This document shows, in pieces, positions 1-24,459 of a stretch of DNA of 32,000 bases. The stretch is from positions 30,001-62,000 of the IMG/VR virus record IMGVR_UViG_3300035670_013237, one strand, 5' to 3'. The translations under genes were made by a program, and so were the position numbers. The number at the start of each line of letters is the position of its first letter. The stretch's first letter is position 1. This DNA is from a virus. The notes beneath the pieces are model-generated. The model did not search any database. It was not told the DNA's origin and saw only the letters and a list, made by a program, of their open reading frames with translations.

Positions 1-2
1 TC

Positions 3-539
3 GTTCGTGGGCAGGAAGATAAAGGCGTCATGGTCTGGGCCTTCGGCAAGATCGTGTATCAGCGCCTCCTTGGATTCTTCATTGATGAAGATTATGGTGA
101 TATTCTCGATCCACTCCAGGGCTTCGACCTGAAGGTGACGATCTCTCAGCAGCCCGGAAAGCAATTCCAGGACACGGTGGTCGACTGCAAGGGTCGCCCC
201 AGCAAGCTCCATGAAGACTCTGCCACGATCAAGAAGTGGCTCGACGCTGTCCCCAACCTCGATGACATGTACCGTCTCAAGTCGAGGGATGAGATCGAGG
301 CCGTGCTCAATAACTGGCTCAATGGCGGTGATACATCAACTGTCCAGGAAACGGGCACTGCGAAAGGTGGGTCCGGCGGGGTCGATGTCCTTGATGACTT
401 TGTGAAGGAAGTGAAGCAGGCAAAGCCCGCTCCGAAGCCAGGTGCGACGAAGAAGTCATCCTTTGATGATGACGACGCCCCTGCGCCCAAGAAGCAGTCG
501 CTGGATGAAGCTTTCGAAGACCTGATGAACGACGACTGA
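3..539 (+). CDS. T4 gp32-like single-stranded DNA-binding protein, C-terminal part (5' end lies upstream of the window)
   Basis: The frame is open from the window edge. 'EDKGVMVWAFGKIVYQRL' resembles T4 gp32 'ENEGKVFKYRFGKKIWDKI'. The Gly/Ala-rich linker is followed by an acidic tail 'DDDDAPAPKK..EAFEDLMNDD', like gp32 '..DDTDLDDLLNDL'. Confidence 0.7.
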   Translation, partial: VRGQEDKGVMVWAFGKIVYQRLLGFFIDEDYGDILDPLQGFDLKVTISQQPGKQFQDTVVDCKGRPSKLHEDSATIKKWLDAVPNLDDMYRLKSRDEIEAVLNNWLNGGDTSTVQETGTAKGGSGGVDVLDDFVKEVKQAKPAPKPGATKKSSFDDDDAPAPKKQSLDEAFEDLMNDD

Positions 540-547
540 GGTAAAAC

Positions 548-1798
548 ATGGCAAAGGTATCCAATAAGGGCTCTACCTCTGCAGACCTCCCTGAGAAGCC
601 TAGCAAGAAGAAGTCAGGGGATGAGATCGACGATCTTACCTCTGACCTCATCAAGCAGCTCAACAAGGAGTTCGGGCAGAGAATTGCTTACAATTTGAGC
701 GAAGACGAAGCGCCCACGATCGTGAAGCGCTGGATTGACACTGGTTCCATTCAACTCAACTATGCAATTCGTAATGCAGCAAATGGCGGATATCCGGAAG
801 GTCGAATCATCGAAATTTCGGGCCTTCCATCTTCAGGCAAGTCGCATCTTGCTTACCATGCTGCGGCGGTGACACAGGCATTGGGCGGTCTTGTCGTCTA
901 TGTCGACACCGAGAATGCGACTCCCATTGAGAAGTTGAAGCACATGGGCATCAATGTGGCAAAGAAGTTTGTGTACTGCGATACGCATTGCACGGAAGAA
1001 GTCTTCGCCATCATTGAGAGCACAGTGACGAAGGCAAAGCAGATCATTGAAAAGAATGTTCCCATCCTTGTGATCTGGGACTCTGTGGCTGCCACATCAC
1101 CCAAGGCTGAGCTTGACGGTGATTATGACCAGAACACTATTGGTCTGCAAGCTCGTGTCATTAGTAAGGGCATGCGCAAGTTGACGGGTGTGATTGGGCA
1201 AAACAACGTAACGCTTCTGTGCATCAATCAGGTCCGCGAGAAGATTGGCGTGCTCCACGGAGATCCCATCACAACGCCGGGTGGCAAAGCGATTCCCTTC
1301 CACGCCTCTGTACGCATTCGCCTCGGCTCTGGTAGCCCCATCAAGGACAAGGCGGGTAATGTGGTGGGCATTCACACGACTGTTTCTATCAAGAAGAACA
1401 AGGTGGCTCCTCCCTTCCGTAAGTGCGAATTTGACATTCACTTTGGCAAGGGCATTGTGGAACACGAGTTCCTCTTCGATGAGTGCAGGTCTTGGTGCGA
1501 CAAGAACAAGGTCCTGATGGATTACGCTGGTGCTAAGGGACAAGCAAGGAAGGTCGAGGTGAGCGTTTCAGGAACTGGTGCTTGGAAAGAGCTCACTGTG
1601 TCAGACGCGGAGACAGGAGAGGTCGTGCTCGAAAAGAAATTCTATAAGAATGACTTTGGCGACATGCTCGTCGATCCTGTGTATAAGCCCTTCCTCGATA
1701 AGGTGATCGATGATGCCTTGACACTGCAGTCCGGCGCCCCGGCAGGCGACGGAGAATCACCCAGCGACGATGAAGATGAGGTGCTCAATGACGATTAA
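548..1798 (+). CDS. recA: RecA-family recombinase
   Basis: Walker A 'GLPSSGKSHLAY'. 'ILVIWDSVAATSPKAELDGDYDQNTIGLQARVISKGMRKLTGVIGQNNVTLLCINQVREKIGVLHGDPITTPGGKAIPFHASVRIRL' is nearly colinear with the bacterial RecA core. SD-like 'TGAGG' lies upstream of the ATG. The C-terminus is acidic ('DDEDEVLNDD'). Confidence 0.9.
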   Translation: MAKVSNKGSTSADLPEKPSKKKSGDEIDDLTSDLIKQLNKEFGQRIAYNLSEDEAPTIVKRWIDTGSIQLNYAIRNAANGGYPEGRIIEISGLPSSGKSHLAYHAAAVTQALGGLVVYVDTENATPIEKLKHMGINVAKKFVYCDTHCTEEVFAIIESTVTKAKQIIEKNVPILVIWDSVAATSPKAELDGDYDQNTIGLQARVISKGMRKLTGVIGQNNVTLLCINQVREKIGVLHGDPITTPGGKAIPFHASVRIRLGSGSPIKDKAGNVVGIHTTVSIKKNKVAPPFRKCEFDIHFGKGIVEHEFLFDECRSWCDKNKVLMDYAGAKGQARKVEVSVSGTGAWKELTVSDAETGEVVLEKKFYKNDFGDMLVDPVYKPFLDKVIDDALTLQSGAPAGDGESPSDDEDEVLNDD

Positions 1799-2213
1799 GA
1801 AGATCAAGTACATGGGTGACTTCACACCGGCTTATCAGTCCGATGGTGCAGCAGGTTGTGATCTCACGTCATCGATGGATCAGGTCATTGAACCCCAGTC
1901 ATGGGGTGTCGTGCCTACGGGGCTCTTCCTGGAAGTTCCCCCGGGCCATGAGGCACAGATCAGGTCACGCTCTGGTCTTGCTGTGAAGCACGGTGTGTTC
2001 GTGCTCAATGGCATCGGCACTGTCGACTCTGACTACAGGGGCGAAATAAAGGTCATCCTAGCCAACATGAGCCACCGTCCGTTCATCATCAAAAAAGGAG
2101 ATAGGATTGCACAGATGGTTTTTGCGCAATTTTCTCGTGCCATTTTTGAAAAGGTAGATGAGCTGTCTGATACACCACGAGGTGCAGGCGGGTTCGGATC
2201 GACAGGTCGTTGA
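1788..2213 (+). CDS. dut: Trimeric dUTP pyrophosphatase (dUTPase)
   Basis: Motifs 'AAGCDL', 'RSRSGLAVKHG', 'GTVDSDYRGEI', 'GDRIAQMVF' and the C-terminal 'RGAGGFGSTGR'. The start is set at ATG 1788 (MTIKKIKY), which overlaps the recA stop. In-frame ATGs also exist at 1770 and 1776. Confidence 0.9.
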   Translation: MTIKKIKYMGDFTPAYQSDGAAGCDLTSSMDQVIEPQSWGVVPTGLFLEVPPGHEAQIRSRSGLAVKHGVFVLNGIGTVDSDYRGEIKVILANMSHRPFIIKKGDRIAQMVFAQFSRAIFEKVDELSDTPRGAGGFGSTGR

Positions 2214-2218
2214 TCTGC

Positions 2219-2272
2219 CTGTGTGCCATGAGGTTGTTCTCATGGCACACAGCACCCTTTGTGAGATTTTTT
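2219..2272 (+). terminator. Perfect 14-bp hairpin after dut, with a distal T6 run
   Basis: CTGTGTGCCATGAG (2219-2232), loop GTTGTT, CTCATGGCACACAG (2239-2252). The T6 run at 2267-2272 is 14 nt from the stem, so this is not a textbook intrinsic terminator. Confidence 0.4.
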
Positions 2273-2310
2273 GTAATCAAAATTGTAGCAGGGCAAAATA
2301 CATAGAGCAT

Positions 2311-2637
2311 ATGAGAATCACGACTTCACAGCTGCGCAGAATTATTCGTGAAGAGCTACAGGTCATCCGTGAAGCGAGATCTGTCAACATTGGTGCCCTT
2401 GAGAAGCTAATCATGAGGTACAACAATGATCCCGAGAGCGAAATTCCGCCCAAGAGTCTGCAGTCTGTGGGTCTCACCACGAACCCTGAGTATACTTACC
2501 GTGCCGTGTATGGGCAGATTGTGGCGCGGGACGATGGTGATGACGTGGAGTTCTGGTCCAATGAGCTGAACAGGTGGAAGCGGATTGACTACGAGGATCG
2601 TCAGCACTCTGTGTCGATTCACAATCCACAGCAATGA
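2311..2637 (+). CDS. Hypothetical protein with N-terminal 'SQLRRIIREEL' motif
   Basis: Start chosen at ATG 2311 (MRITTSQLRRIIREEL). The longer ORF-track start at 2158 would read through the dut end and the hairpin. No recognisable domain. Confidence 0.55.
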   Translation: MRITTSQLRRIIREELQVIREARSVNIGALEKLIMRYNNDPESEIPPKSLQSVGLTTNPEYTYRAVYGQIVARDDGDDVEFWSNELNRWKRIDYEDRQHSVSIHNPQQ

Positions 2638-2699
2638 AATAACCCACTGTTAGTGGGTCTCTGTACTTCAAAGTATTTATAGGATACTGTGACAGCATT

Positions 2700-3674
2700 A
2701 TGTCGACAGATGAACGGCCTTTTCTCATCATTGATTCGATGAACCTCTTCGTGAGGTCTTATAGTGCATACCCCACAATGTCTGCGCACGGATATCAGAT
2801 GGGCGGGTGCATAGGCTACCTGAAGACCCTGAGGAGGCTGGTGAACGAAATCGGCCCGCAAGGCGTCTATATTGCCTGGGAAGGTGGCGGTTCGCAGAAG
2901 CGCCGGGCCCTGTACTCAGAATACAAGTTGAATCGAAAACCTGAGAAGCTAAATCGCTTCTATGAGGACGATATTCCTGACAGTGACGACAACAAGAAGC
3001 ACCAGATCATTGCTCTTTTGGGCATGCTGAAGTGCATTCCTGCATGCCAGATTTATGTCTCAGACTGTGAGGGTGATGACGTCATTGCTTATTTGGTGAG
3101 AGGTCCCCTGAGGAACAAGCCAAAGATTGTCGTGTCATCCGACAAGGACATGTACCAGCTGCTCGATGACACGACTAAGATATACAGCCTGCACAAGAAG
3201 ACGTACATCACGATTCCTGATGTGGTCGAAGAATTCCGCGTGCAGCCCAAGAACTTTGCGATTGCAAAAGCCCTGTGCGGCGATCCGACGGACAATATTC
3301 CAGGTGTTAAGGGCTTAGGGTTCAAGACTGTGGCTAAGTCGCTGCCATTTCTTTCGACAGAGGAGGACGTCATACTGGAAGATGTTTTCAAGTATTGTCA
3401 TGCACACTCTGACGAGTCTACGATTTTACGCAGGATAATTGGGCACGAAGATGACATAAAGCGAAACTGGAAGCTCGTCCACCTGGACGGTAGCATGCTC
3501 TCAGCTGCACAGTCTACCAAGGTCGACCATCTCATCAATACATTCACTCCTATAGCAGATAGAATGGGACTCATTAGAAGCTTAGTTCGTGAGGGCATCA
3601 ATGATTTTGATGTGGAGGGATTCTTCTACACATTCAACTGCATTTCTGGCGTCGAGAACAAAACGAGGAATTAA
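2700..3674 (+). CDS. 5'-3' exonuclease / flap endonuclease (PIN plus H3TH, PolA N-terminal-domain type)
   Basis: 'FLIIDSMNLFVRSY', 'GDDVIAYL', 'VVSSDKDMYQLL' and 'GDPTDNIPGVKGLGFKTVAKSL' are the classic 5'-nuclease acidic clusters and the H3TH motif. Confidence 0.85.
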   Translation: MSTDERPFLIIDSMNLFVRSYSAYPTMSAHGYQMGGCIGYLKTLRRLVNEIGPQGVYIAWEGGGSQKRRALYSEYKLNRKPEKLNRFYEDDIPDSDDNKKHQIIALLGMLKCIPACQIYVSDCEGDDVIAYLVRGPLRNKPKIVVSSDKDMYQLLDDTTKIYSLHKKTYITIPDVVEEFRVQPKNFAIAKALCGDPTDNIPGVKGLGFKTVAKSLPFLSTEEDVILEDVFKYCHAHSDESTILRRIIGHEDDIKRNWKLVHLDGSMLSAAQSTKVDHLINTFTPIADRMGLIRSLVREGINDFDVEGFFYTFNCISGVENKTRN

Positions 3675-5104
3675 TGAACGACGATAAAACAACGACAAGG
3701 GTCTCTTTTGCGACTTATGGCAAAGCCTTCCAAGAAAAGATCGTGCAGGCCCTGCTTGTCGATAAGCAATTTGCTGAGCAAATGCTGGAAGTCTTCGATA
3801 TCTCTTACTTGGAACCAAAATACCTCCAATTTTTGGGAGATCGTTACTTTTCTTATGCTAAGAAGTACAAGGTCTTTCCGACGATGCAGCTCCTTGTGAC
3901 GATCATTAGAGATGAGCTGAAGGTCGGAACTGACACTATCATTCGTGACCAGATCGTCGATTATTTGCAAAGAATGCGTGCCAACCCGGATCCCGGCGAT
4001 CTGCAATATGTCAAAGAGAAATCTCTTGATTTCTGTAAGAAGCAGGCACTCAAGAAGGCGCTAGAAGACGCAGTCGATCAGATTCAGGCAGAGAAATACG
4101 AATCGATCGTTGATGGCATCAAGAAGGCCGTCATGGTGGGGAATGCGCCCCAGCTGGGACACGATTTCTTCACAGATTTTGAGAGTCGTTTCACGCGCCT
4201 CCAGCGCAATGCTGTGCCAACTGGGCTTGACGAACTTGACAAGAAAGAAATCCTCAATGGCGGCCTTGGTGCAGGTGAGATTGGTGTAATCGTCGCGCCT
4301 ACAGGTGTGGGCAAGAGTCACATGTTGACATACCTCGGTGCCAGCGCTCTTCGAGCGGGCATTGACGTTCTTCATTACACCTTCGAACTGTCAGAGGCCG
4401 CCGTCGGCCTGCGCTACGATTCGAACCTGTGCGATCTCGATTCTAACCAGGTGATCGACAGGAAAGATGAAGTCCTGAAGCAATACCAGGACATGAAGCT
4501 TGGTCGTCTCATCATCAAGGAATTTCCCACGAACACGGCCTCCATCTACACACTGCGAAGCCACATTGAGCGCCTCGATATCAAGGGCTTCCGGCCTGGA
4601 GTCATCATCATCGACTACGCAGACATCATGCGGTCTACCCGGCAGTTCGACTCGCTCCGTCATGAATTGAAGTTGATTTATGAAGAGCTCCGAGGGTTTG
4701 CGACTGAGAAGGGCATTCCCATCTGGACGGCATCTCAGTCGAACAAAGAAGGATCGAACAATGACATTGTAGATCTCAGCAACATGAGTGAGGCGTATGG
4801 GAAGGCGATGGTCGCCGACGTGGTCCTCAGCATTTCACGGCGATCTCATGAAAAGTCGACAGGTTTTGGGCGCCTCTACGTCGCCAAAAACCGTGCAGGC
4901 CGGGACGGCCTCGTGTACCCTGTGAAGATTGACACGGCTAGGAGTAAGTTTGAAATAACTGGCGGTGCAGGCTCTCTAGAGGGTGCGGTGAAAGACAACG
5001 AAGATGAGGTGAAGAAAGCCCTCCGCCTCAAGTGGAAAGAATTGAGAAATGATCCTGTGATCGGGAATAAAATGAAAAAGCCAGATGCCGACAACAGCGA
5101 ATAA
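3674..5104 (+). CDS. Replicative DNA helicase, DnaB/T4 gp41-like
   Basis: Walker A 'APTGVGKSHML'. 'GRLIIKEFPTNTASIYTLRSHIERLDIKGFRPGVIIIDYADIM' parallels T4 gp41 'GRLIVKQYPTGGADANTFRSLLNELKLKKNFVPTIIIVDYLGI'. 'WTASQSNKEG' is also present. The ATG overlaps the upstream TAA (TAATG). Confidence 0.85.
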   Translation: MNDDKTTTRVSFATYGKAFQEKIVQALLVDKQFAEQMLEVFDISYLEPKYLQFLGDRYFSYAKKYKVFPTMQLLVTIIRDELKVGTDTIIRDQIVDYLQRMRANPDPGDLQYVKEKSLDFCKKQALKKALEDAVDQIQAEKYESIVDGIKKAVMVGNAPQLGHDFFTDFESRFTRLQRNAVPTGLDELDKKEILNGGLGAGEIGVIVAPTGVGKSHMLTYLGASALRAGIDVLHYTFELSEAAVGLRYDSNLCDLDSNQVIDRKDEVLKQYQDMKLGRLIIKEFPTNTASIYTLRSHIERLDIKGFRPGVIIIDYADIMRSTRQFDSLRHELKLIYEELRGFATEKGIPIWTASQSNKEGSNNDIVDLSNMSEAYGKAMVADVVLSISRRSHEKSTGFGRLYVAKNRAGRDGLVYPVKIDTARSKFEITGGAGSLEGAVKDNEDEVKKALRLKWKELRNDPVIGNKMKKPDADNSE

Positions 5105-5169: not shown

Positions 5170-7338
5170 ATGAGCACATACACGTATCAGCAGGTTCGTG
5201 ATGCGTCGATTAAGTACTTTGGCGGTGACGAGCTCGCCGCGGAAGTCTTTGCGGGCAAGTATGCCCTCAGGGATCTGGCGGGGAGCATTTATGAACTGAC
5301 ACCCTCAGACATGCATCGTCGTCTTGCAAAAGAATTTGCTAGGATTGAGGCCAAATATCCTAACCCTCTCACGGAGAAGGAGATTTTCTGTCTCTTTGCA
5401 GATCTTGAACACCTTGACTTGCCCACTCGTGAGTCCATGACTCTTGATGAACTTGCGGCTGAATCACGTGGTCTTGGATCAGTCATTCCACAGGGCTCTC
5501 CAATGTCAGCGATTGGAAATGACCACCAATTCCAGTCACTCTCCAATTGTTTTGTTATTGAATCCCCACACGACTCTTATGGCGGCATCATGAAGGCCGA
5601 CCAGGAAGAAGCCCAAATCATGAAGCGCCGTGGTGGTGTTGGATTTGACATTTCCACAATCCGCCCAAAAGGCATTGTGACTGCTAATGCAGCCCGAACC
5701 ACTGATGGTATTGGTGTCTTCATGGAGCGCTTCTCTAACACTTGTCGTGAGGTTGCGCAGGGAGGTCGCCGCGGAGCCTTGATGTTGACGATTGATGTCC
5801 ATCACCCAGAGATTCGCACCTTCATCAACATCAAGCGTGACCTGAAGAAGGTGACAGGCGCCAACATCTCAATTCGTCTTTCAGATGAATTCATGCAGGC
5901 AGTCAAAGATGGTGGCAAGGCTCACCTCCGATTCCCAGTCCAGAAGGATGCCCAGCACATTGTGTCTGAACATGTAGATGCTGGTGAATTGTGGCATGAG
6001 ATCATTGAAGCCGCCTGGGCATCAGCGGAGCCTGGTTTGCTCTTCTGGGACACGGTTCTTCGTCGTGGTCCTGCTGATGCATATGCAAGCCATGGATATC
6101 TTTCAACATCTACGAATCCCTGTGGGGAGATCACGTTGTCTCCGTATGACTCGTGCCGTCTGCTGCTCGTTAATCTTTCAAAATTTGTGAAGAATCCTTT
6201 TACGGCCGATGCTTCATTTGATTTTAATAAATTCAATGACACGGTTAAGAAAGCACAGAGATTGATGGACGATCTGATCGATCTGGAGCTCGAGGCGGTC
6301 GATCGAATTCTTGATAAGATCAAGAGCGATCCTGAGCCAGAGGAGGTGAAGAGGCCCGAACTCAATCTGTGGATGAAGATTCGCTCTGCGGCTATCAATG
6401 GTCGTCGAACAGGCTTGGGCATCACGGCCTTGGGAGACGCACTCGCATACCTCAACGTTCGTTATGGTTCTGACGAATCTGTCACAAAGACAGATGAACT
6501 TTATCGCGGCTTGGCATTGGGTGCTTATAGGTCAACTGTGGAGATGGCACGTGATCGTGGAGCATTCCCTGTGTTTTCACATGACATTGAAAAGGGTCAT
6601 CCTTTCATTGAGCAGGTGTTGAACGAGGATCCTGCTTTACGTGCAGATTATGAAAAGTATGGTCGTCGTAATATCGCGTTGACAACAACAGCACCCGCAG
6701 GCTCGGTTTCGATTCTCACCCAGACGACGTCAGGCTGTGAGCCGGCGTTCATGTTGGGATACAAGCGCCGCCGCAAGATTAATCCCAGTGACTTTGAGGC
6801 GAAGGTTGACTTTATCGATCCGCTCGGGGATAAGTGGCAGGAGTACATGGTTTATCACCATGGATTCAAGAAGTGGATGGATGTCTCGGGTAAGACGATG
6901 GATCAGGCCCCTGAGTCTCCTTATTATGGTGCCACATCAAATGAGATCGACTGGGTCAAGAAGGTCGACATGCAGGCCGCGGCTCAGAAGTGGATTTGTC
7001 ATTCAATTTCTAATACTTGTGTGGCGGCCGACGCCTTGGTTGAAACAGACATGGGGCTGCTATATATGGATGAGATAGCAAATGATGCAGGTTGTAGCGA
7101 TAATGAACCTGCTCCTGTTAAAGACCTAAGGGTAAAAAATCACCTTGGTCGTAATGCCTCAGTTGGTCTTGTGTCCTCACAAGGAGAAAAGCAGGTCTAT
7201 CGTGTTACTACTAAATCAGGAAATAGTGTCATAACCACGAATGATCATAAATTCATTCTCCTGAATGAGATCAGTGATATTGAGGCATGGACACCTCTTT
7301 TTGATATCAACGTCGGCGACAGAATCAAATTATCATAA
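5170..7338 (+). CDS. nrdJ: Class II (B12-dependent) ribonucleotide reductase, N-extein (5170-7017) fused to the N-terminal split-intein half (7018-7335)
   Basis: RNR motifs 'SNCFV', 'RRGGVGFDIS', 'NPCGEITL' and 'TTAPAGSVSIL'. After 'KWICHSISNT' the sequence switches to intein block A 'CVAADALVETD' and block B 'TTNDHKF', then stops after 106 intein residues. SD GGAGA lies 8 nt upstream of the ATG. Confidence 0.85.
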   Translation: MSTYTYQQVRDASIKYFGGDELAAEVFAGKYALRDLAGSIYELTPSDMHRRLAKEFARIEAKYPNPLTEKEIFCLFADLEHLDLPTRESMTLDELAAESRGLGSVIPQGSPMSAIGNDHQFQSLSNCFVIESPHDSYGGIMKADQEEAQIMKRRGGVGFDISTIRPKGIVTANAARTTDGIGVFMERFSNTCREVAQGGRRGALMLTIDVHHPEIRTFINIKRDLKKVTGANISIRLSDEFMQAVKDGGKAHLRFPVQKDAQHIVSEHVDAGELWHEIIEAAWASAEPGLLFWDTVLRRGPADAYASHGYLSTSTNPCGEITLSPYDSCRLLLVNLSKFVKNPFTADASFDFNKFNDTVKKAQRLMDDLIDLELEAVDRILDKIKSDPEPEEVKRPELNLWMKIRSAAINGRRTGLGITALGDALAYLNVRYGSDESVTKTDELYRGLALGAYRSTVEMARDRGAFPVFSHDIEKGHPFIEQVLNEDPALRADYEKYGRRNIALTTTAPAGSVSILTQTTSGCEPAFMLGYKRRRKINPSDFEAKVDFIDPLGDKWQEYMVYHHGFKKWMDVSGKTMDQAPESPYYGATSNEIDWVKKVDMQAAAQKWICHSISNTCVAADALVETDMGLLYMDEIANDAGCSDNEPAPVKDLRVKNHLGRNASVGLVSSQGEKQVYRVTTKSGNSVITTNDHKFILLNEISDIEAWTPLFDINVGDRIKLS

Positions 7339-7339
7339 T

Positions 7340-7380
7340 TTTCTTGCCCACACCATATTTATAATGGGATGGGCAAGAAA
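7340..7380 (+). promoter_or_regulatory. 11-bp perfect inverted repeat enclosing the endonuclease start codon
   Basis: TTTCTTGCCCA (7340-7350) pairs with TGGGCAAGAAA (7370-7380). The 19-nt loop contains TATAAT (7360-7365). ATG 7369-7371 overlaps the right arm. Confidence 0.45.
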
Positions 7381-8424
7381 GTGTCAAAATCTAGAACAAG
7401 GTTTACGTGTAAAGTTTGTCAAAAAGAACGTGAAGAAATGAACAGCATCATTAAAAAATCAACAAGCTTGAGCAATGGATGCTGTTCACTTGAGTGCTTC
7501 AAAACGACTAAAGAATATTTTTCTCTAAGAAAAGAATCAGATGATAAACGTATTGCCCGTATAAGAATGACCGGTGATTTTCATAAAAATGGAATGGCAG
7601 GGAAAATTACACGTGCAAAAAATTTCTTACATGCTTTAGGGCTTGACACAAGTGAGATGAGTGTTAGCACACTTTTAGCAGAATTTAAGAGACTCTTTTC
7701 TATTCATGCTGGACATGGTGAAAAAATCAAAATAGGAAGGGAAAAGAAGCGGCCAGATCCTGAGGATAGAAAAAAATCTGACCAAGAAAGAGTTGTAAAG
7801 GGCGCATGTAATATGCTGGGGATAAAGTTTGACCCTGACATGTCTTTGATTCTTAGAAAAGAAATTACAAAAAGAGCTTTTGCAAGATTTCGTTCACACA
7901 GTAAAAAAGAATGGAAGCTCAAACACCTGCTCAATATCGGCATGCAGGTGCTTGACGTTTCAGAAGAAAATATCGACAGGCTGTATACTGAGTATCTTTC
8001 AAGAAGATTTAAGAAAAGCTCAATTGAAACAGAAAAAAATGGTTATTCGTGTACAGAAAAAGGCTGGTATGTTATGACTAGCTCCACAGATAGATTTTTT
8101 TATAGATCTTCTTGGGAAAAGAAAGTATTTGAGGCGTTAGATCTGCTTTTGGGCGAGGGAAAAATATTAGACGTGATTGAGCCAGAAAGAGTTCCATATA
8201 GTTTTGATAATATCAAGCGCCACTATTATCCTGATGCATGTTTTATCAATTCAAAAGGGCAAAAAATTGTTCTAGAAATCAAACCGCTAGAAAAATGTGC
8301 TGATCCAATAAACAGTGAAAAATTTTGCGCAGCAAAATCTATTCCTGAAATTTCTTTCCACATTTTGACGGAAGTAGAAATTTTTCAAAAAGACATTAAG
8401 GAATACTTGGAGACCCTAATATGA
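7369..8424 (+). CDS. Free-standing putative homing endonuclease: N-terminal Cys-rich (zinc-finger-like) region plus C-terminal PD-(D/E)XK (TnsA-N-like) nuclease fold
   Basis: The N-terminus has 'FTCKVCQKE...NGCCSLECF'. The C-terminus 'YRSSWEKKVFEALD...HYYPDACFINSKGQKIVLEIKPLEK' fits the E...PD...(D/E)xK pattern. The ORF is Lys-rich and AT-rich, and lies between the two nrdJ halves. Confidence 0.6.
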   Translation: MGKKVSKSRTRFTCKVCQKEREEMNSIIKKSTSLSNGCCSLECFKTTKEYFSLRKESDDKRIARIRMTGDFHKNGMAGKITRAKNFLHALGLDTSEMSVSTLLAEFKRLFSIHAGHGEKIKIGREKKRPDPEDRKKSDQERVVKGACNMLGIKFDPDMSLILRKEITKRAFARFRSHSKKEWKLKHLLNIGMQVLDVSEENIDRLYTEYLSRRFKKSSIETEKNGYSCTEKGWYVMTSSTDRFFYRSSWEKKVFEALDLLLGEGKILDVIEPERVPYSFDNIKRHYYPDACFINSKGQKIVLEIKPLEKCADPINSEKFCAAKSIPEISFHILTEVEIFQKDIKEYLETLI

Positions 8425-9446
8425 ACAGCGATACCATCAAAGATGTTTGCCTAGATCCTAGGGGAAGAATTCCCCTCAATTTTAGAAAAGATAAAAAATC
8501 AGCAGCAACATTTTTGATGCTGGTGTCAACTCTGAATCTCGAAAAAGAGCAGATAAAAAATCCAGGTTATTGGACAATTTATAGGTGGTTGAATGATGAG
8601 CACAATCACAATGATTATGATGAAGTTATTTCAATTGAAAAACTTGGATTTGAAAAAACTTATGACCTAACTGTTCCTGACGGCAATTCATTTACTGCAA
8701 ATGGAATCACGGTTCACAATTGCAATCTTCCAAATAACATTAGCGTTGAGACTGTCAAAGAGGTCTATATGCGTGGTTGGGAGACGGGCTGCAAGGGCGT
8801 CACCATCTATCGAGACGGTAGTCGTACTGGTGTGTTGGTGTCAGACGAGCCGAAGAAGGAAGCAGAAGAGGTTGACGGACAGCCCGAGAAAATTCTTGAA
8901 AATCACGCCCCTAAGAGACCTAAGGAACTTTCTTGCGATATTCACAGGGTGAACGTGAAGGGTGAATCTTACCTTGTTCTTGTAGGCATGTTGGATGGCG
9001 CACCTTATGAGGTCTTCGCTGGTCTGTCTGAACACGTTGAGGTTCCAAAAAAGGCTAAGACCGGTGTTCTAATCAAGAATGGCAAGAAGGATGGCGTGGC
9101 GACGTACAACCTTCGAATTCCAGTCGGTGATGATGACTCTGTTCTTTTCAAGGACGTTGTAGAGCTGTTCTCCAACAAGGTTTATGGCGCCTTCACTCGT
9201 ACAATCTCCTTGGCTCTGCGGCATGGTGTACCTGTCCAGTACCTTGTTGAACAACTGCGTAAGGACAAGAGTAGCGACATCACCTCATTCTCAAGTGTGA
9301 TTGCTCGTGTGCTCAGCAAGGGATACATTCCTGATGGCACAAAGACCACCATCGAGAAGAAGTGTCTCGAGTGTGGCGGCACAAATCTTGCATATCAGGA
9401 TGGCTGTGTGACGTGCATGGATTGTGGATCCTCAAAGTGCGGATGA
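8421..9446 (+). CDS. nrdJ: C-terminal split-intein half (ending at 8720) fused to the nrdJ C-extein (8721-9446)
   Basis: Intein blocks F/G 'TYDLTVPDGNSFTANGITVHN' are followed by +1 Cys. The RNR sequence follows: 'CNLPNNISVETVKEVYMRGWETGCKGVTIYRDGSR', with a C-terminal Zn-ribbon 'CLECGG...CVTCMDCGSSKCG'. The ATG overlaps the endonuclease stop (ATGA). Confidence 0.8.
   Translation: MNSDTIKDVCLDPRGRIPLNFRKDKKSAATFLMLVSTLNLEKEQIKNPGYWTIYRWLNDEHNHNDYDEVISIEKLGFEKTYDLTVPDGNSFTANGITVHNCNLPNNISVETVKEVYMRGWETGCKGVTIYRDGSRTGVLVSDEPKKEAEEVDGQPEKILENHAPKRPKELSCDIHRVNVKGESYLVLVGMLDGAPYEVFAGLSEHVEVPKKAKTGVLIKNGKKDGVATYNLRIPVGDDDSVLFKDVVELFSNKVYGAFTRTISLALRHGVPVQYLVEQLRKDKSSDITSFSSVIARVLSKGYIPDGTKTTIEKKCLECGGTNLAYQDGCVTCMDCGSSKCG
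8613..8720 (+). other. Canonical Int-C core (36 aa: DYDEVISIEKLGFEKTYDLTVPDGNSFTANGITVHN)
   Basis: The length and the terminal HN followed by Cys are typical of Int-C halves. The upstream boundary is approximate. Confidence 0.6.
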
Positions 9447-10105
9447 AAATGAATACTAATCACATAGAATTAATTGGTTTTTATGGAGGAGACGAGGCTC
9501 ATGCCTTGTCTGCTTGGACTTCAACCTCTCGTGATTTGTCACAGGAGAAGCGCGCCAGAATGGGCAAGCTCCTGAAGGACCTCGCGTCGAATGGACATGA
9601 AACCCCATTCGAGAAGAGCTCTCTGCATTTCCTCGTGACGACTGAGATTGCGACGCACATTCAACTTTTGAAGCATCGAATTGGTGTTTCAGTCAACGCT
9701 GAATCTGCACGCTACAAAGAGCTGAAGGACGACAAGTATTATGTCCCTACTGACTGGGATGACGAAGAGCGTGACCGGTACATCCAGCACTTAGAAGACT
9801 CATTAAAAAAGTATCATGAAACGTTGGGCCGTCTTGTTAAGAAGGGTGTCAACAGGAAGCGCGCGAAAGAGTCTGCACGCTTCTACCTGCCCTACGGCAA
9901 CCAGATCACGGCGGACATTATGTTCAACTTTAGGAGCTTCGTCCACTTCTTGCGCCTTCGCTACTCTACACACGCTCAGCTCGAGATTCGTGAAGTGGCC
10001 CGACAGATGCTTGAAGCTGTGGTGGCTGCAGACACTTTCAAGGAAAGCCTGCTTGCATTTGGATTAGTGCAAGAGGATGGCACCATCCGGCCTCCTTTCT
10101 CTTGA
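9443..10105 (+). CDS. thyX: Flavin-dependent thymidylate synthase
   Basis: ThyX signature 'KHRIGVSVNAESARY' (RHRxxSxNxxSxRY type), plus 'HETPFE' and 'ARFYLP'. ATG 9443 overlaps the nrdJ TGA. An alternative ATG lies at 9449. Confidence 0.9.
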   Translation: MKMNTNHIELIGFYGGDEAHALSAWTSTSRDLSQEKRARMGKLLKDLASNGHETPFEKSSLHFLVTTEIATHIQLLKHRIGVSVNAESARYKELKDDKYYVPTDWDDEERDRYIQHLEDSLKKYHETLGRLVKKGVNRKRAKESARFYLPYGNQITADIMFNFRSFVHFLRLRYSTHAQLEIREVARQMLEAVVAADTFKESLLAFGLVQEDGTIRPPFS

Positions 10106-13207: not shown

Positions 13208-13738
13208 ATGAAAAGCTCTCTGCTGCTCAACGCTGATTACACGCCGCTGCACTTCGTCAGCAATGTTCGTGCTTTTGCTCTCGTTTTCAAGGGCCGTGCT
13301 GAGATCCTTGACATGGACGGAAAACCGAGCGTTTGGTCTGAGGATATCGTTAGAACGCCAACCGCATCTTATAATTTACCAGCCACGATCAGGCTCTTGA
13401 AGCGGGTCAATGTGAGGTGGCATCCTCCAAAATTTCGCAAGAGCGCAGTTTTTAGCCGCGACAATTGGCAGTGCCAATACTGCAGAGCTGACCTCTATCG
13501 ATCAAATATGACGATTGACCACGTGTTCCCCCGCTCTCGTGGGGGCGAGACGTCGTGGAAAAATTGCGTTGCCTCATGCAAAAATTGCAACAGGAGGAAG
13601 GCAAATAAAACTCCCTCTGAGGCTGAGATGCCGCTCTTAAAAGTGCCTGTGGAACCCACGCCAGTCCATTTTTGGTCGATGAATAAGTGTAGCGCAAGCT
13701 GGCATGAAGATTGGGCGATCTTTATTCCTCGCGGCTAA
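13208..13738 (+). CDS. HNH endonuclease (McrA-like, with N-terminal 'LLLNADYTPL' domain)
   Basis: 'WQCQYCRADLYRSNMTIDHVFPRSRGGETSWKNCVASCKNCNRRKANK' is a complete CxxC...DH...N...CxxCN HNH motif. Confidence 0.85.
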   Translation: MKSSLLLNADYTPLHFVSNVRAFALVFKGRAEILDMDGKPSVWSEDIVRTPTASYNLPATIRLLKRVNVRWHPPKFRKSAVFSRDNWQCQYCRADLYRSNMTIDHVFPRSRGGETSWKNCVASCKNCNRRKANKTPSEAEMPLLKVPVEPTPVHFWSMNKCSASWHEDWAIFIPRG

Positions 13739-23153: not shown

Positions 23154-23698
23154 ATATGATGATTGCACTTGAGGGACCTGATATGTGCGGGAAGACTCAG
23201 ATAGGCCGCGAGTTGGCTTCTAAGTTGAGTCTTGCATACTATAAAAATTCAGGAGAATGGTCGGGGGATTTACGGACAACTGATTATTTCAAAAATGTTC
23301 TGACTTATGGCACATACATTCAGACTGACATGCTATGTCAGGTCAGGCCGCAAATTTTGCTCGATCGCTTTTATCCCTCTGAGTGGGTTTATTCAAAGGT
23401 CTTCAAGCGTGAGACTGATATAGATGCTCTTGCACGAATCGATCAAATGTTCGCAAGAGCAGGTGGGCGTATCGTCGTGTGCCGGCGAAAGTCCTATGAT
23501 GGAATCACGGATGACTTGCACAGCTATGTTGGGTCCGAGGTTCTGAGGGAGCTTGATAGGGTTTACGAAGATTTTTCAAAATGGACGAAATGTAACACAA
23601 TGACGCTATGGGTTGACGATCACAATCTAGCCCGTCAGGTCACTGACATCCTGCAGTGGATTTCATCTGGTAAGAATAATAGTTTAGGTGAACTATGA
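23150..23698 (+). CDS. Deoxynucleoside-monophosphate kinase (thymidylate-kinase-like P-loop kinase)
   Basis: P-loop 'IALEGPDMCGKTQ' and 'DRFYPSEWVY' (the DRY/S motif region of Tmk-like kinases). It is translationally coupled on both sides. Confidence 0.6.
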   Translation: MNMMIALEGPDMCGKTQIGRELASKLSLAYYKNSGEWSGDLRTTDYFKNVLTYGTYIQTDMLCQVRPQILLDRFYPSEWVYSKVFKRETDIDALARIDQMFARAGGRIVVCRRKSYDGITDDLHSYVGSEVLRELDRVYEDFSKWTKCNTMTLWVDDHNLARQVTDILQWISSGKNNSLGEL

Positions 23699-24459
23699 AA
23701 ATCAATACAGTCTCTGATGTACGCAATGAATTTTCTAATTTAATCGCCTGGAGCCGATATGTCGGTCTCAACCGTGAGGCATCAATGACGAACTTGATGG
23801 GTTCGAGCACGGTCGAGATCGTGGGTGCTTGCTTCGTCGCTGATGAAGACGTCATCTTTGGCAAGGTGAACAGCGACTATGTAGAGCGCGAGAAACTGTG
23901 GTACGAGTCCATGTCACGTAGTGTCAACGATTTTCCAGGTGGGGCGCCCCCTGTCTGGAAGGCAATCGCTGACGCTGATGGGTTGATCAATTCGAACTAT
24001 GGCTGGTGTATCAACAGTCCAGAAAATGGTTCGCAATTTGAAAAGGTTGTGAAGGAACTCAAGAAGAATCCAGAGAGCCGTCGGGCAATCATCATTTATA
24101 CACGGCCCTCAATGTGGGAAGATTATAACCACAATGGTCGCAGCGATTTCATGTGTACGAATGCTGTCCAGTATTTGATTCGTGAAGGGAAAGTTCACTC
24201 CGTGGTCCAGATGAGGAGCAATGACGCGATCATTGGTTATAAGAATGACCGTGCATGGCAGCAAGACGTATTGAAGAAAGTCGCAGAAGAAGTAGGTTAC
24301 CCTGCCGGAAGTGTCATCTGGCAGGTCGGAAGCCTCCATGTGTACGAGCGTGACTTTTATCTTGTCGATTACTATGCAAAGACTGGGACACTATCAGTCA
24401 CTAAGTCGAAGTATTGCTCGTTATATCCTGATTCACCCTTTGCTAAGGATCTCAAATGA
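23695..24459 (+). CDS. dCMP hydroxymethylase (T4 gp42 homolog)
   Basis: Long colinear matches to T4 gp42: 'EIVGACFVADEDVIFG', 'INSNYGWCINS', 'NPESRRAIIIYTRPSMWEDYNHNGRSDFMCTNAVQYLIREGKVHSVVQMRSNDAIIGYKNDRAWQ' and 'GSVIWQVGSLHVYERDFYLVD'. Confidence 0.9.
   Translation: MKINTVSDVRNEFSNLIAWSRYVGLNREASMTNLMGSSTVEIVGACFVADEDVIFGKVNSDYVEREKLWYESMSRSVNDFPGGAPPVWKAIADADGLINSNYGWCINSPENGSQFEKVVKELKKNPESRRAIIIYTRPSMWEDYNHNGRSDFMCTNAVQYLIREGKVHSVVQMRSNDAIIGYKNDRAWQQDVLKKVAEEVGYPAGSVIWQVGSLHVYERDFYLVDYYAKTGTLSVTKSKYCSLYPDSPFAKDLK

Follow-up and report, generated by a model that had tools for sequence, protein, structure and literature searches.

A split intein with a TnsA-like endonuclease gene in its gap probably fractures the nrdJ gene of an uncultured phage

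The gene of a class II ribonucleotide reductase (RNR), nrdJ, was found to be broken in two on a 32,000-nucleotide stretch of viral DNA, hereafter the window (IMG/VR record IMGVR_UViG_3300035670_013237, record positions 30,001-62,000; coordinates follow window numbering). The enzyme is encoded by two open reading frames (ORFs) on the same strand (5170-7338 and 8421-9446), the first ending with the N-terminal part of an intein (Int-N) and the second opening with the C-terminal part (Int-C), with an ORF for a free-standing endonuclease (7369-8424) on the same strand between the halves (Table 1). These features very probably constitute a composite mobile element (7018-8720), in which a class 1 split intein with a homing endonuclease gene in its gap fractures the phage nrdJ; trans-splicing of two NrdJ precursors, as well as homing, would be its activities. 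An earlier annotation of this DNA (the original prediction) had arrived at the same interpretation, which is supported here, and all coordinates and peptide strings that it quoted were found in the sequence.

Table 1. Features of the fractured nrdJ locus of the window
Feature	Position	Strand	Size	Description	Basis
NrdJ (class II RNR) N-extein	5170..7017	+	616 aa	ends ...KWICHSISNT	Pfam Ribonuc_red_lgC
Int-N	7018..7338	+	106 aa	followed by TAA at 7336-7338	in frame after ...HSISNT
RNA hairpin	7338..7382	+		around the start region of the endonuclease gene	folding energy, conserved structure
Free-standing endonuclease gene	7369..8424	+	351 aa (347 aa if GTG 7381 is the start)		motif, fold
Int-C N-terminal extension	8421..8612	+	64 aa	predicted four-helix module	family-specific
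Int-C core	8613..8720	+	36 aa	blocks F and G, ends ...TYDLTVPDGNSFTANGITVHN	intein matches
NrdJ C-extein	8721..9446	+	241 aa	starts CNLPNN; TSCPD/zinc-ribbon C-terminus	Pfam

The N-terminal part of NrdJ was identified with Pfam Ribonuc_red_lgC (E 2e-80), its residues 125-619 covering profile positions 1-496 of 523, and the C-extein with positions 492-523 of the same profile, in addition to TSCPD. The thiyl-radical motif NPCGE occupies NrdJ residues 316-320, residue 318 being the thiyl-radical Cys. Int-N begins with CVAADALVETD, contains TTNDHKF and ends with GDRIKLS; a spacer of 30 nt separates its stop codon from the ATG of the endonuclease gene, and the ATG of the Int-C ORF overlaps the endonuclease stop codon by 4 nt (ATGA). 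The third ORF reads ...TYDLTVPDGNSFTANGITVHN-CNLPNNISVETVKEVYMRGWETGCKGVTIYRDGSR across the boundary between intein and NrdJ at 8720/8721 (junctions are marked with a hyphen throughout). The intein part of this ORF amounts to 100 residues (an extension of 64 and a core of 36), and the size of about 36 residues previously given for Int-C was incorrect. The G+C content was found to drop from approximately 49% outside to approximately 35% across roughly 7050-8720.

All residues needed for class 1 splicing are present, namely Cys1, T-N-D-H of block B, the block F Asp (YDLTV), the terminal His-Asn (VHN) and Cys+1. The sequence obtained by placing the final 36 residues of Int-C after Int-N gave a colinear alignment over the break with the mini-inteins of Npu DnaB (4o1r, E 6.5e-11) and Ssp DnaB (1mi8, E 6e-8); matches to known split inteins were weak (gp41-1, E 0.016; Npu DnaE, E 0.2-0.4). 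Int-N gave a weak match to Pfam Intein_splicing (E 8e-5) and its close homologues carry PF14890, for which two matches were obtained with Pfam in the window, each under the curated cut-off. In an exhaustive search, over 100 contiguous inteins were found whose blocks F and G match Int-C residues 65-100, approximately. The break itself lies at the canonical endonuclease-insertion loop. A group I or group II intron in place of an intein was rejected, as no Rfam model for intron RNA matched the region. The proposal of an intein that is split and accompanied by a free-standing endonuclease, or ‘fractured gene’, is therefore borne out by the splicing residues, the mini-intein alignment and the lack of intron RNA, as well as by the conserved layout and purifying selection described below.

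A scan of metagenome contigs gave at least five further loci. The same gene order at the same motif was identified in L001, L002/L048, L003, L004, L044, L047 and L049. These loci are very different in DNA sequence and base composition, some being AT-rich, and encode an Int-N of 106-109 aa, an endonuclease of 345-414 aa and an Int-C of 95-103 aa. The start of Int-C overlaps or abuts the endonuclease stop codon in seven of the eight loci retaining the endonuclease gene (-1 to 19 nt), and six of the eight relatives with a retained endonuclease gene show an overlap of 1-19 nt. The closest relative was found to be L049 (positions 1-3915, SRR26784073 contig), with a C-terminal ORF 86% identical to that of the window. 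Its N-terminal nrdJ ORF, of 1225 aa, contains an additional contiguous intein with a weak HNH_3 match, and an intein signal was also obtained for the neighbouring DnaB, replication genes being sites of intein accumulation in this phage lineage. Another interrupted phage nrdJ was observed in the uncultured crAss-like phage cr108_1 (MT774385.1 / NC_055878.1), where the nrdJ match falls in two pieces (73951-76878) with a ‘hypothetical protein’ between two features annotated as ‘vitamin B12-dependent ribonucleotide reductase’.

Occupancy of the insertion site was surveyed among the best 120 relatives of the C-terminal ORF (protein clusters). Seventy-nine clusters are uninterrupted at the site (SISKTCNLP, SISNTCNLP, SISNTTNIP...), 26 open with a long Int-C followed by Cys+1, six open with a long Int-C followed by Thr+1 (the insertion being one residue upstream) and nine are fragments without the junction motif. 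With at least 32 fractured clusters against 79 uninterrupted, the site displays a presence/absence polymorphism, which is the pattern that a homing element predicts. The sequence SISNT-CNLP expected upon excision of 7018-8720 agrees with these uninterrupted alleles, and the intein-less nrdJ alleles with which a comparison had been advised do exist. Two such empty alleles, in close relatives, are L050 (...KKVDMQAAAQKWICHSISNT-TNIPNQ), with 20 residues on the N-terminal side identical to the window, and L051 (...HAISKT-CNLPND). Furthermore, the nrdJ of a syntenic phage (P0173 contig) is fractured at a different site and intact at that of the window, and relatives fractured close to the thiyl-radical Cys (junction HN-CAELILSPYDSC) are likewise intact here.

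Stages of endonuclease decay were found in two relatives. In L001 (IMGVR_UViG_3300032243_001742) the TnsA-like endonuclease gene is frameshifted (3986-4396 / 4243-5040). In L046 (positions 1-1500, Ga0172373_10072205) it has been deleted nearly entirely, approximately 30 codons of its 3’ end (...LGKNFQVLTEDEIFEGSLLEKLENL) being left between the Int-N stop and the Int-C start, with both intein halves intact; such a deletion corresponds to step III of the gene-breaking model of Dassa 2009. Both relatives also carry a second fracture. The nrdJ of L001 (910-3952) is broken again upstream at ...FYTSN-CNHPEIETF (DVHHPEI in the window, at residue ~211), this junction being preceded by an ORF for a Vsr-like endonuclease (910-1899), and since the TnsA-like and Vsr-like fractures coexist, a single gene has here been broken at two sites by two endonuclease types. 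In L046, the ORF opens with an Int-C belonging to a different site, immediately N-terminal to the thiyl-radical Cys (HN-CAELILSPYDSC).

The stop at 7336 and the intervening gene boundaries had been named as possible artefacts. Contigs from two independent sequencing runs were found to be identical to the window with zero mismatches, over 9,026 bases for SRR11566349 (contig of 86 kb) and over 5,361 bases for SRR10854513 (contig of 5.5 kb), and the locus is not an assembly artefact, because the two runs agree base for base. A JGI source likewise records the product of the C-terminal ORF, its contig being up to 271 kb long. This identity bears equally on the idea that sequencing or assembly errors account for the stops and frame changes, or that translation gets past them by readthrough or frameshifting, so that a single polypeptide with a contiguous intein and an in-frame endonuclease domain would be made. 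The window itself lends this some colour, as its N-terminal and endonuclease ORFs lie in one frame with a single TAA (followed by 10 sense codons) between them (7336-7369), and the same holds for L049 (3913-3958). However, the endonuclease of L002 and L047 is in another frame than the N-terminal ORF, and the shared frame is probably coincidental because these loci lack it. The Int-C ORF is in yet another frame, with its start at the endonuclease stop in nearly all endonuclease-retaining loci, and separate start codons are conserved together with a structured hairpin, rendering a single polypeptide extremely unlikely.

This hairpin has a folding energy of -25.1 kcal/mol (z -6.2), a stability not reached by any of 200 shuffled sequences. 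ATG 7369 lies within it and GTG 7381 at its end; by comparison with relatives, the GTG may be the real start of the endonuclease gene. Equivalent hairpins of unrelated sequence were found in six of seven loci, with a purine-rich ribosome-binding stretch in the 3’ arm, and one compensatory pair (G-C to A-U) distinguishes the hairpin of L049 from that of the window. They agree with the translational-control hairpins described by Dassa 2009 (PMC2677866) and by Gibb and Edgell. By sequestering the ribosome-binding region and start codon, the hairpin would probably keep translation of the endonuclease low. The Int-C ORF is probably translationally coupled or independently initiated, because its ATGA overlap is preceded by GGAG (8 nt upstream of the ATG). 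Generic scans for promoters and terminators inside the element gave counts equal to the shuffled expectation. The T4-late-like TATAAATA box reported by Dassa 2009 (PMC2677866) was not found on the + strand in the hairpin loop of the window, where only its reverse complement TATTTATA occurs; the box is present in L004.

Judged from the ratio of nonsynonymous to synonymous substitution rates (dN/dS) between the window and L049, all segments of the locus are under purifying selection, with rough values, as dS is near saturation, of 0.04 for both the N-extein and the C-extein, 0.13 for Int-N, 0.16 for the endonuclease, 0.14 for the Int-C extension and 0.02 for the Int-C core, the most constrained segment. 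Such values sit poorly with a decaying pseudogene, in which the insertion would have killed nrdJ and left the phage dependent on the RNR of its host. Mobile-element insertions can kill a gene, and the endonuclease has decayed in L001 (frameshift) and L046 (deletion), but both exteins are complete and strongly constrained, the intein halves are intact even where the endonuclease has decayed and the arrangement has been kept in at least 32 diverged clusters. Loss of nrdJ function is accordingly given very little credence.

Non-covalent assembly of the NrdJ fragments was also weighed, with the intein halves, and perhaps the extension, serving as interaction domains without ligation. Precedent for this exists in phage Aeh1, where the element-derived tails of NrdA-a and NrdA-b build an active RNR without splicing (PMC3045599), and both the extra conserved module of Int-C and the divergent alleles L003 and L004, without the block B His, would be compatible with it. 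On the other hand, the window and its closer relatives keep every catalytic splicing residue (Cys1, TxxH, block F Asp, HN and Cys+1), and the strength of constraint on the Int-C core would be unexpected if binding alone mattered. The break, moreover, lies inside the conserved barrel motif SISxTxNLP, at which 206 foreign residues would remain. Assembly without ligation is consequently considered improbable, although the assertion of the original prediction that active RNR must be made by trans-splicing goes further than sequence alone allows.

For the split intein favoured here, two precursors would be translated, NrdJ(1-616)-IntN(106) and IntC(100)-NrdJ(241), the intein halves of which would associate and splice in trans, joining ...SISNT to CNLP... 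and restoring a full-length class II RNR. The modular nuclease would cut intein-less nrdJ near the SIS(K/N)T-(C/T)N(L/I)P codons, and repair of the cut would copy the whole element into the empty allele. Support for a homing endonuclease is indirect, consisting of the presence/absence polymorphism, the tie of the endonuclease family to this nrdJ site and the stages of its decay.

The endonuclease family comprises 30 clusters, with identity down to 32% across loci. In the window protein, a CxxC...CCSxxC motif at the N-terminus is followed by a helical middle and by a C-terminal PD-(D/E)xK nuclease at residues ~232-351 (8062-8421), in which E250 (SSWE), D289 (YYPD), E303 and K305 (EIKP), the canonical signature, are invariant in 17 sequences. 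An AF2 model (mean pLDDT 85.7) displayed beta-hairpins at residues 9-24, helices at 25-224 and an alpha/beta nuclease core at 232-350. The best PDB matches of this model with Foldseek were to TnsA (1t0f/1f1z, E 5e-4, probability 1.0), and BFVD fold matches were to phage proteins named as TnsA-N domain, head completion nuclease, endonuclease and putative homing endonuclease. The protein also matched phrog_218 (T4 gp4-type, E 4e-11), one homologue carries a precomputed PF08722 and the family profile matched PDB TnsA with E 0.07. From motif and modelled fold, the protein is predicted to be a TnsA-like/T4-gp4-like PD-(D/E)xK nuclease that bears a Cys-rich motif at its N-terminus.

Two other assignments were tried and discarded. 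A GIY-YIG endonuclease was rejected, there being no Pfam match and the fold being that of PD-(D/E)xK. An EDxHD/Vsr-like endonuclease, a family defined by E, D, H and D residues (PMC3239194), was rejected on account of the invariant E250, D289, E303 and K305 and the TnsA fold; the EDxHD signature is absent, no His is invariant in the nuclease domain of the 17 sequences, no PDB profile match to 3r3p or 1cw0 was obtained and neither is among the top 50 Foldseek matches. The Cys-rich motif (CxxC-x(~20)-CCSxxC(F/Y); 7399-7497 in the window) was found as well in the Vsr-like endonuclease encoded by L001 (L001:1000-1896), whose best PDB matches are 3r3p and 1cw0, both weak. It is the only part that this protein shares with the window family (hhalign E 9e-4, probability 24%), the nuclease domains being unalignable, and this weak similarity may reflect a shared zinc-binding DNA-recognition module placed on two nuclease cores. 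A free-standing relative of the nuclease domain beside an RNR gene was observed in L033 (3992-7014), where a T4-gp4-like PD-(D/E)xK protein of 156 aa is encoded immediately upstream of, and overlapping, an nrdJ-like gene of 863 aa.

At 100 aa in the window and 95-103 aa across the family, Int-C is outside the size of a canonical split intein. Its first 64 residues are conserved family-wide, including the Thr+1 and AT-rich branches, with R16, P18, R22 and W56 invariant across 22 sequences. AF2 predicted four helices in this extension, with pLDDT 92-96 over most of the segment. Exhaustive and profile searches located it only at the N-terminus of Int-C/NrdJ ORFs, in 11 representative clusters at 50% identity, and no match was obtained with Pfam, PDB profiles or Foldseek, the last query suffering from the low confidence of the HINT part. 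In topology, the extension occupies the position in which contiguous inteins hold their endonuclease domains. A LAGLIDADG relic was considered, as ‘RIPxEFR...FL’ resembles by eye ‘K.IP......FLxGlxDxDG’ of the contiguous inteins at this site and hhalign aligned the two accordingly, but the idea gained no support: the score of 13.2 (E 0.14) was below the maximum of 14.5 reached by column-shuffled controls, and blocks F and G alone accounted for a longer comparison. Kinship with the endonuclease was rejected (hhalign E 0.57).

The extension belongs to the functional Int-C protein, and the best guess regarding its role is a docking or solubility module that would help the halves to meet. More tentatively, and with the balance leaning against it, the family might form a distinct split-intein class in which the 64-aa module serves fragment association or splicing in replacement of a charge zipper, or DNA recognition in homing, with TnsA-like/T4-gp4-like PD-(D/E)xK nucleases as a further family of intein-associated homing endonucleases.

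Several observations weigh against the proposed trans-splicing and homing element. In the divergent AT-rich alleles L003 (3273-3596) and L004 (3520-3849), Glu replaces the block B His (TTKE and TSNE, respectively, in place of TNDH); these alleles may splice non-canonically or not at all, and canonical splicing is not necessarily family-wide. Characterized split inteins have oppositely charged interface strands (Dassa 2009, PMC2677866), whereas Int-N (net -6) and the Int-C core (net -5) are both acidic by a crude count, the extension carrying a net charge of +2. The HINT part of the AF2 joined-intein model, for which only three Int-N homologues were used, was poor (mean pLDDT 60.7) and does not define the placement of the extension relative to the splicing domain. 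The window endonuclease has no Pfam match, and only four of 17 family members touch PF08722 (best E 1.8e-4). To these is added the near saturation of dS underlying the selection values.

In the window lies the module for replication and nucleotide metabolism of a large uncultured phage, encoding RecA, a 5’-3’ exonuclease, DnaB, NrdJ, ThyX, an IMPDH/GMP-reductase-like protein, a dUTPase_2-like protein (a faint Pfam match), HSP20, a metallophosphatase, a DnaE-type Pol III alpha and a ThyA-like protein. No close cultured phage was found by megablast, and the best NrdJ match is 51% identical. A free-standing HNH endonuclease gene (13208-13738; HNH_5, E 5e-16) lies between the metallophosphatase and downstream genes and is a further candidate mobile nuclease in the module. 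Both ThyX (9449-10105; Thy1) and the ThyA-like protein (23695-24459; Thymidylat_synt, E 7e-16) are encoded, and the latter could be a DNA-modification enzyme of the deoxynucleoside monophosphate hydroxymethylase type and not a redundant thymidylate synthase.

Split inteins of fractured phage genes (gp41-1, NrdJ-1 and IMPDH-1) are widely used in protein ligation, and the family described here is separate and well populated, its native Cys+1 junction, Thr+1 sister group and unusual additional Int-C module offering new, possibly orthogonal, ligation parts. It is also a test case for the association of split-intein fragments without obvious charge complementarity, and its canonical PD-(D/E)xK TnsA-like domain adds to the catalytic domains found inside inteins. 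Its empty sites, intact elements, frameshifted or deleted endonucleases, contiguous LAGLIDADG counterparts at the same site and alternative fractures together provide a natural series of unusual completeness for the gene-breaking model.

In comparison with known systems, the window belongs to the class of fractured genes, split inteins with free-standing endonucleases that include the NrdJ-1 and NrdJ-2 loci, the layout of which has been known since 2009 (Dassa 2009, PMC2677866); the original prediction cited this work accurately. As in those NrdJ loci, three same-strand ORFs (host-N with Int-N, endonuclease, Int-C with host-C) occur in a phage context, a spacer with a hairpin precedes the endonuclease (30 nt here, 27-51 nt in the paper), the 3’ end of the endonuclease gene overlaps the Int-C ORF and the intein is broken at the canonical insertion loop. 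The overlap of 4 nt differs from the 6-69 nt reported, and Int-C is longer than the reported 33-54 aa because of the conserved 64-aa helical extension. Obvious charge complementarity between the halves is absent (crude count), and the endonuclease is a TnsA-like PD-(D/E)xK protein, whereas fractured genes were reported with GIY-YIG and Vsr-like/EDxHD endonucleases only. A 2025 survey lists LAGLIDADG, HNH, GIY-YIG, Vsr-like and EndoVII-like endonucleases as intein-associated, and no paper tying TnsA-type nucleases to split inteins was found in the literature searched. NrdJ-1 and NrdJ-2 are inserted one residue C-terminal of the NrdA site, which adjoins the thiyl-radical Cys on its N-terminal side (PMC2677866); the SISNT-CNLP junction of the window, after residue 616, is situated approximately 300 residues downstream of Cys 318 and does not represent an allele of either.

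This site is new relative to the published NrdJ split inteins but is already used by inteins generally, as contiguous LAGLIDADG inteins occur in class II RNRs such as P0125 and P0133 at ...SGSISK-CVSGDTLV...HN-TVNLP. They share with the window the host protein, the motif and a similar block A (CV.GD.LVE) and block G (ANGI..HN), at the Thr+1 position of the L004 subgroup, one residue upstream of the Cys+1 site of the window. Unlike in the window, the LAGLIDADG domain is in frame within a single polypeptide, a free-standing gene is absent and nothing matches the 64-aa extension.

The endonuclease shares its core fold and E...D...(E/Q)xK motif with the N-terminal domain of TnsA (Tn7) and the T4 gp4-type head completion nuclease, but has approximately 230 extra N-terminal residues (Cys-rich motif and helical region) and is encoded inside a split intein in nrdJ and not in a transposon or head-assembly module. 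Like I-Bth0305I and the EDxHD family (PMC3239194), it is a modular free-standing phage protein with a putative DNA-binding part at its N-terminus and a C-terminal restriction-endonuclease-like nuclease, differing in the lack of the EDxHD motif and conserved catalytic His and of any sequence or fold match to 3r3p or Vsr. The nrdA/mobE system of Aeh1 (Crona et al. 2010, PMC3045599) likewise consists of an RNR large-subunit gene broken by a free-standing endonuclease gene, with extra element-derived residues at the break and, going by the citation in Dassa 2009, a hairpin-type control of the endonuclease; it differs from the window in having no intein and in the non-covalent assembly of its fragments. 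Within the fractured-gene class, the window is new in its nrdJ site, in its TnsA-like PD-(D/E)xK endonuclease and in a long Int-C with a conserved helical module, neither such a nuclease type nor so long an Int-C having been described before.

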